NCBI RefSeq assembly: GCF_044324785.1
Contig: NZ_CP172127.1
Source: Escherichia coli
GTDB taxonomy: Bacteria; Pseudomonadota; Gammaproteobacteria; Enterobacterales; Enterobacteriaceae
Length of the DNA: 64,000 nt
Reading direction: 5' to 3' (one strand)
In this document: one piece after another, positions 24,280 through 24,605 of the stretch
Layout of the letters: each line of letters opens with the position of its first letter
How positions within the stretch are numbered: position 1 is the stretch's first letter
The notes under the pieces: generated by a model
The model's database searches: none
What the model was told of the DNA's origin: nothing
What the model saw: only the letters and a program-made list of their open reading frames with translations
Made by a program: the position numbers and the translations under genes

Positions 24280-24605
24280 AATGAATCCTTTTTCGATTTA
24301 TGAGAATAAATACTCATTTAAGGGTGAAAACATTTTGCCTGCAAATGATTATCAGGAAATATAACATTATCGAAGTATTCAAATTAACAACTATTAAATA
24401 ATATTAAACATTTTTAACGTAAACATTAAGAATATTCATCTTGTTATCTGTCTGTATTTTAACCAGAATTAAATCAGTATTAGATACCGTATGAATATCT
24501 CGAAATGGTGCTGTGTATCACATACAAATCATCACCGCAGGACCATAGTATTTACATAAGGTTTGTCCCCCGGAGGTAGTCATCGCAGCAATCGAGTAAA
24601 TTAGC

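Follow-up and report, generated by a model that had tools for sequence, protein, structure and literature searches.

Among the closest described counterparts of this locus is STnc250 of Salmonella, which is the ypfM mRNA: it runs at about 220 nt on northern blots, is co-immunoprecipitated with Hfq and is growth-phase dependent (Sittka et al. 2008, PMC2515195). STnc250 is also abundant in RNA-seq data from S. Typhi, and mass spectrometry has detected YpfM as a protein, in low-Mn minimal medium (PMC12529367). According to a genomic SELEX study (Shimada 2014, PMC3946193), the spacer between ypfM and yffB of E. coli binds both the sigma-70 holoenzyme and H-NS in vitro, and it is listed there as a type-A (divergent) constitutive sigma-70 site. 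From the SELEX data, the same study predicted TTCATA-16-TTTAAT as the yffB promoter and gave TTCACC-17-TAGAAT as the hexamers of ypfM. Using SMRT-Cappable-seq, one transcription start was mapped for yffB-dapE-ypfN (b2471, b2472, b4547), at position 2591166 of NC_000913.3 (PMC6131387, Supplementary Data 2), and an internal start for dapE-ypfN was found at K-12 position 2591560 (PMC6131387).

We analyzed this spacer in a stretch of 64,000 nt of E. coli DNA, referred to here as the window. The original prediction had described positions 24280-24605 as a non-coding tract upstream of yffB-dapE-ypfN. The open reading frame list and the annotation confirm a non-coding tract upstream of these genes, but its right boundary had to be moved, as ypfM had been missed and the spacer continues to 24659. 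At its full length (24280-24659) the yffB-ypfM spacer comprises 380 bp, and the tract is the left 86% of it. The local gene order is ypfH (+), ypfN (-), dapE (-), yffB (-), the spacer, ypfM (+), two hairpins and acrD (-), which is convergent with ypfM and has its stop at 24818. Since the right-hand neighbor is the annotated ypfM on the plus strand, and yffB and ypfM are read away from each other, the spacer is divergent and more than a plain upstream region of yffB. We regard the tract, with high confidence, as part of a divergent yffB-ypfM regulatory spacer that carries the leader and promoter of yffB, an AT-rich upstream region and control DNA of ypfM. The features of the locus are listed in Table 1.

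Table 1. Features of the yffB-ypfM spacer and its flanks, in window coordinates (a dot marks features given no strand).
Feature	Position	Strand	Detail	Basis
yffB CDS	23923..24279	-	ArsC-family reductase, first gene of yffB-dapE-ypfN	ORF list and RefSeq annotation of matching E. coli records
yffB Shine-Dalgarno	24290..24286	-	AAGGA	sequence
yffB 5' untranslated leader	24280..24360	-	81 nt	published start mapped onto the window
Best Fur-consensus match (13/19)	24341..24359	.	contains AATGATTATCA; within the initial 20 nt of the yffB leader, shortly after start 24360	
yffB core promoter	24357..24371	-	-10 GATAAT (24371..24366) and overlapping extended -10 TGTTATATT (24365..24357)	
AT-rich, poorly conserved core	24372..24494	.	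GC about 0.22; length varies between genera	
Imperfect 24-bp palindrome	24422..24445	.	AACATTAAGAATATTCATCTTGTT; 15-nt arms, 80% complementary; candidate operator	
yffB promoter predicted by Shimada 2014	24468..24495	-	TTCATA-16-TTTAAT	located in the window by sequence
Distal ypfM block	24496..24549	+	TTTCaaAATaTTGC-N6-TCACAT, 20-21 nt, CATAGT; 55-bp conserved block	
CRP/FNR-family-like dyad	24508-24521	+	TTGCT-N4-ATCAC; center 24514.5	
-10-like hexamer	24544-24549	+	CATAGT; inferred start about 24556	
Conserved element	24580..24601	+	(G)CAATCnCAGCAATyGGnTAAAT; adjoins the proximal -35 on its upstream side	alignments
Proximal ypfM sigma-70 promoter	24606..24634	+	TTCACC-17-TAGAAT; predicted start about 24641	promoter scan
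ypfM Shine-Dalgarno	24647-24654	+	AAGAGAGG	sequence
ypfM	24660-24719	+	19 aa, MIERELGNWKDFIEVMLRK	RefSeq-annotated in essentially all complete E. coli genomes
ypfM 3' UTR	24720..24817	+	hairpin and terminator; region matched by Rfam STnc250	
Perfect hairpin	24744-24766	+	11-bp arms; absent from Salmonella	inverted-repeat scan
Intrinsic terminator	24780-24813	+	shared with convergent acrD	terminator scan

Of 5426 complete E. coli genomes, 5425 have the order yffB (-), ypfM (+), acrD (-) (at least 98% identity among the records listed), and among the matches listed the closest complete genome is that of E. coli 042 (99.6% identity over 701 nt). Compared to K-12 MG1655, the spacer differs at three positions only, so that K-12 data carry over directly. 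Coordinates were converted by subtracting the window position from 2615526 (NC_000913.3). For comparison across species, 80 yffB loci were gathered from Enterobacterales. In about 60 of these loci, representing about 60 species, YpfM is encoded upstream of yffB and divergently from it, and the spacers range from 202 to more than 1000 bp with a GC content of 0.30-0.49. Several genera (loci L013, L029, L057, L061, L062, L080 and L081) have yffB-ypfM spacers of 700-2000 bp, and genes or elements may have been inserted there between the yffB promoter and the conserved ypfM block. In E. coli source tracking, the ypfM intergenic region serves as a host- and niche-informative SNP marker (PMC11267920). 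This use fits a high within-species variability relative to the flanking genes.

The tract had been described as much more AT-rich than its flanks, and this was confirmed. Its GC content is 0.307 (30.7%), compared to 0.537 for the window, and no other 326-bp stretch in the 64 kb is lower (bottom 0.16% of sliding windows). The region between 24340 and 24500 reaches a GC content of 0.22. Among the approximately 20 intergenic gaps in the window (gap GC 0.38 to 0.60), the tract is the most AT-rich, and its AT-richness is the strongest compositional feature of the window. The length of the spacer, which had been considered unusual for a promoter, turned out to be ordinary: another divergent spacer in the window measures 355 bp, and the others range from 163 to 355 bp. 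The same holds for DNA curvature, which had been proposed on the basis of A/T runs. Only five runs of at least four A or T bases are present, they are unphased, and no AA/TT periodicity of 10-11 bp was detected in the spacer. According to the Trifonov wedge model, the spacer ranks in the top 7% of windows by its mean curvature and at the 98.6th percentile by its peak, whereas the core, where the AT content is highest, should be almost straight. As both the wedge trajectory and the AA/TT periodicity were unremarkable, curved DNA was rejected.

An imperfect palindrome, ATGAGAATAAATACTCAT, had also been singled out. Its position (24300-24317) is exact, and it was not found to be significant. It is one of ten inverted repeats with perfect 5-bp arms in the spacer, where dinucleotide shuffles yield 6.2 +/- 3.0 and 13% of the shuffles reach ten; palindrome enrichment was therefore discarded as a signal. 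Moreover, the palindrome is not conserved even in E. albertii. It lies within the yffB leader, where it could form a weak 5-bp hairpin.

The published yffB start, K-12 2591166, corresponds to position 24360 of the window and yields a leader of 81 nt. Single-sequence folding of this leader gave nothing unusual (z = +0.9). In Salmonella the yffB leader is 97 nt long, as known from reporter fusions whose design followed mapped starts, and a yffB::gfp fusion is subject to repression by the sRNA SdsR. When the SdsR-yffB duplex was predicted by unconstrained duplexfold, the result was no better than that of shuffled sequences (21%), and this uninformative approach was dropped.

Two overlapping -10 elements were found at the expected position relative to the mapped start. 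GATAAT fits the E. coli start at 24360, and the extended -10 TGTTATATT, shared by Escherichia, Citrobacter and Salmonella, agrees with the -97 start of Salmonella. The two starts (-81 and -97) imply a slightly different usage of the -10 elements, and the choice of hexamer by yffB is inferred from these fits. The core promoter has no recognizable -35, which makes the AT-rich DNA upstream of it a plausible UP-like region. The yffB promoter predicted in Shimada 2014 is not supported by the mapped start, which lies about 100 nt downstream of it, and the sequence at this site is poorly conserved. The internal start at K-12 2591560 corresponds to position 23966 (-), within the 3' portion of the yffB gene, and provides dapE-ypfN with a promoter of their own that is independent of the spacer.

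A conservation profile was calculated from an alignment of 25 genera. The region of the yffB Shine-Dalgarno sequence is conserved across them. The rest of the leader and the AT-rich core (24320-24490) show roughly 35-45% identity with many indels. Conservation resumes at 24495-24549 and at 24580-24610, and is very strong at 24620-24659. The tract is conserved in part: its right third is, but its AT-rich core is not.

The right-hand side of the spacer belongs to ypfM. Our promoter scan predicted the proximal ypfM promoter independently of Shimada 2014, and the hexamers given in that report are identical. This promoter lies just past 24605, the right boundary of the tract as first drawn. It is widely conserved: in most of 68 species, including Yersinia, Pantoea, Serratia and Dickeya, TTCACx-17-TA(G/T)AAT is found with the -10 at -31 from the ATG. 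The conserved element directly upstream of its -35 is possibly an UP element or an activator site. In many species it looks like a tandem GCAATC repeat, and RNA-structure support for it was absent. Apparent "covarying" repeats at about 24580-24600 were considered as a helix and proved to be this conserved sequence element instead.

The YpfM peptide is conserved in more than 60 species. Over the 3' part of the ypfM mRNA, Rfam RF01409 (STnc250) matches positions 24699-24818, outside the tract, with 34.9 bits and E = 1.5e-4. The match remains under the gathering score of 42 because E. coli has an additional hairpin (24744-24766) that lengthens the ypfM 3' UTR. In Citrobacter, a YpfM-like peptide (...FIEVMLRHGKAQMIEREL...) that matches both halves of YpfM was noticed antisense to the 3' end of ypfH (L006 4347-4400, corresponding to about 22380-22433 of the window). 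As it has no stop codon and is absent in E. coli, we consider it a chance match.

Further upstream of ypfM, the alignments revealed the distal block. In 50 species its motif, AAAT(A/G)TTGC-N6-TCACAT, stands 153-171 nt away from the ATG of ypfM but anywhere between 134 and 873 nt away from yffB, and the core of the block is invariant in about 50 Enterobacteriaceae species. The nearly constant distance to one gene and the variable distance to the other indicate that the block belongs with ypfM. The block consensus derived from a sequence logo is T.TTtCaaAATaTTGCtgT..gTCACATaAAattta-N8-gg..CATAgT. In 52 of 55 species, a -10-like hexamer of the xATAxT type (A at position 2, T at position 6) follows TCACA after 20-23 nt, mostly 21 nt. 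The hexamer itself turns over among CATAGT, CATATT, GATAAT and TAAAAT. A spacing that is kept while the hexamer changes is the behavior of a promoter element. With 21 nt between TCACA and the -10, and a start about 7 nt past the -10 (around 24556), the dyad would be centered at -41.5. No -35 match was found for the distal -10-like CATAGT. In class II CRP/FNR-type promoters, the activator dyad is centered at -41.5 and the -35 is weak or absent.

The similarity of the dyad to either family is limited. It scores 14/22 against the CRP consensus, which 25% of shuffles reach (range 12-14/22), and 7-8/10 against the FNR core, and in neither case do both half-sites fit. Other readings of the block were compared by eye with consensus sequences: a minus-strand promoter, sigma-54, sigma-32 and sigma-E promoters, a marbox, and sites for IHF, ArcA, PurR, Zur, MntR and OxyR. 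None of them fitted. For Salmonella, the predicted transcripts are about 227 nt from the distal and about 146 nt from the proximal promoter, compared to the published northern band of about 220 nt (PMC2515195). On the other hand, the proximal promoter is the more widely conserved of the two, and the distal block could therefore be something other than a promoter.

Considering these observations, we tentatively propose that 24496-24549 contains a distal ypfM promoter; on alignment evidence, the chance of this falls somewhat short of even. A more specific version, to be held more cautiously still, is that the promoter depends on an activator: a CRP/FNR-family-like protein or another factor would bind TTGC-N6-TCACA at -41.5 and produce a long-leader ypfM mRNA, with conditional synthesis of YpfM. 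Such an activator-dependent promoter would be newly described, and the available part of Shimada 2014 does not mention the block. The block could show how and when the abundant 19-aa YpfM gets made.

The window carries a G at position 24508, where K-12 and all 50 compared species have a T within the invariant TTGC. With this exchange the half-site reads GTGCT instead of TTGCT and comes closer to that of CRP. The exact 60-mer 24490-24549 occurs in about 6 of 5426 complete E. coli genomes. If the block is indeed a promoter, the rare T-to-G exchange of the window strain would alter its activator site.

Between the yffB promoter and the ypfM block lies the AT-rich core (24372-24494), with 26-51% identity per 10-nt bin (mostly 35-45%) and many indels among the 25 genera. 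With a GC content of 0.31 for the tract and 0.22 for the core, against 0.54 for the window, this DNA has the high AT content of H-NS-type DNA. The core probably acts on the yffB promoter in the manner of an UP element and is probably a substrate for H-NS binding. Of the earlier suggestion of a nucleoid-protein-bound regulatory region, the regulatory part stands and H-NS binding stands in the form of in vitro SELEX, but the accompanying curved DNA does not. A stronger reading would make the whole spacer an intrinsically curved, H-NS-silenced nucleoid-protein platform with the main role of repressing both divergent promoters. It would account for the lowest GC content of the window, for the H-NS mark in the genomic SELEX report and for two sites, the yffB -10 and 24494-24503, that agree with the H-NS motif TCGATAAATT at 8/10 positions. 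However, H-NS 10-mers are not enriched in the spacer (73% of shuffles match as well), the predicted curvature is ordinary and the A-tracts are unphased. The support for binding comes from in vitro data, and standard conditions allow expression on either side of the spacer, as seen from the yffB start, the detection of YpfM by mass spectrometry and the abundance of STnc250. We consider a silencing platform of this kind doubtful and prefer the UP-like region with H-NS binding. A weak MarA ChIP signal has been recorded in the Salmonella spacer.

Specific operators are still less probable. The Fur-box-like half site AATGATTATCA pointed out in the original prediction is present, at 24344-24354 and hence one base off, but it is at chance level and restricted to Escherichia. 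As the best match to the 19-bp Fur consensus GATAATGATAATCATTATC lies just past the mapped yffB start, a repressor could act there and render yffB-dapE-ypfN iron-repressed. In line with this idea, yffB is up 2.6-fold in an anaerobic Salmonella fur mutant, and an upstream site, GAAATTCGAATAAATAAT, was predicted there and is unvalidated. Yet 33% of 500 dinucleotide shuffles of the same AT-rich DNA equal the 13/19 match, which does not exceed what composition provides, and Citrobacter and Salmonella lack the site seen in E. coli; on these two grounds the Fur box was rejected. Furthermore, the site predicted in Salmonella aligns to about 24296-24316, in the region of the palindrome and away from the half site, and at that place E. 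coli has no match of at least 12/19. The Salmonella study lists no Fur binding evidence for yffB, and the 2.6-fold effect is small and could be indirect. A Fur operator is thus very unlikely. Slightly better placed, although improbable too, is control of yffB-dapE through the 24-bp palindrome by RcsB or another regulator of the LuxR/FixJ type. This is the best dyad in the spacer, centered at about -73.5 from the yffB start, and it includes the RcsAB-box-like TAAGAATATTCATC (24427-24440), which matches TAAGAATATTCCTA at 12 of 14 positions, a score reached by only 0.4% of shuffles (uncorrected, one of five motifs tried). Because five motifs were scanned, the corrected significance is modest. In addition, GAATATTC-type palindromes form easily in AT-rich DNA, the site is conserved in no genus but Escherichia and, in part, Citrobacter, and the literature yielded no binding or expression data.

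The least probable alternative, which we regard as hardly credible, is an independent unannotated small RNA or small ORF inside the AT-rich tract. The tract is long enough for a small gene, and its plus strand has two mechanical ORFs, of 27 and 33 aa. However, both are broken by stop codons in other Escherichia species and cannot be aligned beyond the genus, and they were rejected; the AT-rich core around them is not conserved. A scan for promoters and terminators yielded no promoter-terminator pair in the tract. Apart from a single lncRNA hit (15.7 bits, E = 7.8), Rfam had no match in 24280-24605, and no credible family besides STnc250 was found. For the conserved right part, RNAalifold was applied to 50 candidate long ypfM leaders, to which testing by alignment was confined; it returned no pairs and hence no consensus structure, and the covariation sought as a sign of a structured RNA was not seen. 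There is indeed a small transcript in the region, as had been suspected, but it is the annotated ypfM mRNA (STnc250) and not an unannotated RNA. It is located at the right edge of the tract and past it, and only its putative long leader and distal promoter would fall inside. In summary, we found no evidence for a Fur operator, curved DNA or an independent hidden gene in the tract; the Fur, palindrome and curvature cues are artefacts of base composition.

Returning to the divergent spacer, we conclude that the tract forms the left and middle parts of the 380 bp that serve as regulatory DNA for yffB-dapE-ypfN on one side and ypfM on the other. From left to right, it comprises the 81-nt yffB mRNA leader (24280-24360), the yffB core promoter with its -10 elements at 24357-24371 and no good -35, and a fast-evolving stretch of about 120 bp with 22% GC, which probably acts as an UP-like region for the yffB promoter and as an H-NS substrate. 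The fourth part is ypfM-linked control DNA, in which the distal 55-bp block would most likely function as an activator-dependent promoter, giving a long-leader mRNA from about 24556. The strongly conserved, predicted proximal ypfM promoter (24606-24634) follows just past the right boundary of the tract as first drawn.

The spacer is ordinary and essentially already known, as its genes, one start site and the binding of RNA polymerase and H-NS are found in the literature. As a normal divergent promoter region in the core E. coli chromosome it matters little, and the practical value of this analysis is one of correction: a neighboring gene, ypfM, had been missed, and the Fur, palindrome and curvature cues had been over-read.

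Compared to known systems, the spacer resembles H-NS-bound AT-rich promoter regions such as those upstream of proU and bgl in its very low GC content, its position between divergent promoters and the reported in vitro binding of H-NS. Unlike these, it lacks predicted curvature and an enriched high-affinity motif, and in contrast to silenced, horizontally acquired DNA, its flanking genes are core genes and are expressed. The distal ypfM block has a perfect TCACA half-site 21 nt before a conserved -10-like hexamer and no -35 match, and with the putative start its dyad would be centered at -41.5, as in class II CRP/FNR promoters. It differs from them in its upstream half-site, the invariant TTGC, which fits neither TGTGA nor TTGAT, and its start is a predicted one. 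Relative to the STnc250 model, the E. coli locus scores 34.9 instead of 42 bits and has the extra 3' UTR hairpin, but it agrees with Salmonella STnc250 in the acrD/yffB synteny, in the identical 19-aa peptide of the ORF and in the Rfam match over the 3' part. With respect to the ypfM<>yffB entry in Shimada 2014 (PMC3946193), the locus is the same (3 SNPs) and shares both the ypfM hexamers and the H-NS flag, but the yffB promoter predicted there and the mapped start at 24360 are about 100 nt apart, with the promoter on the upstream side.
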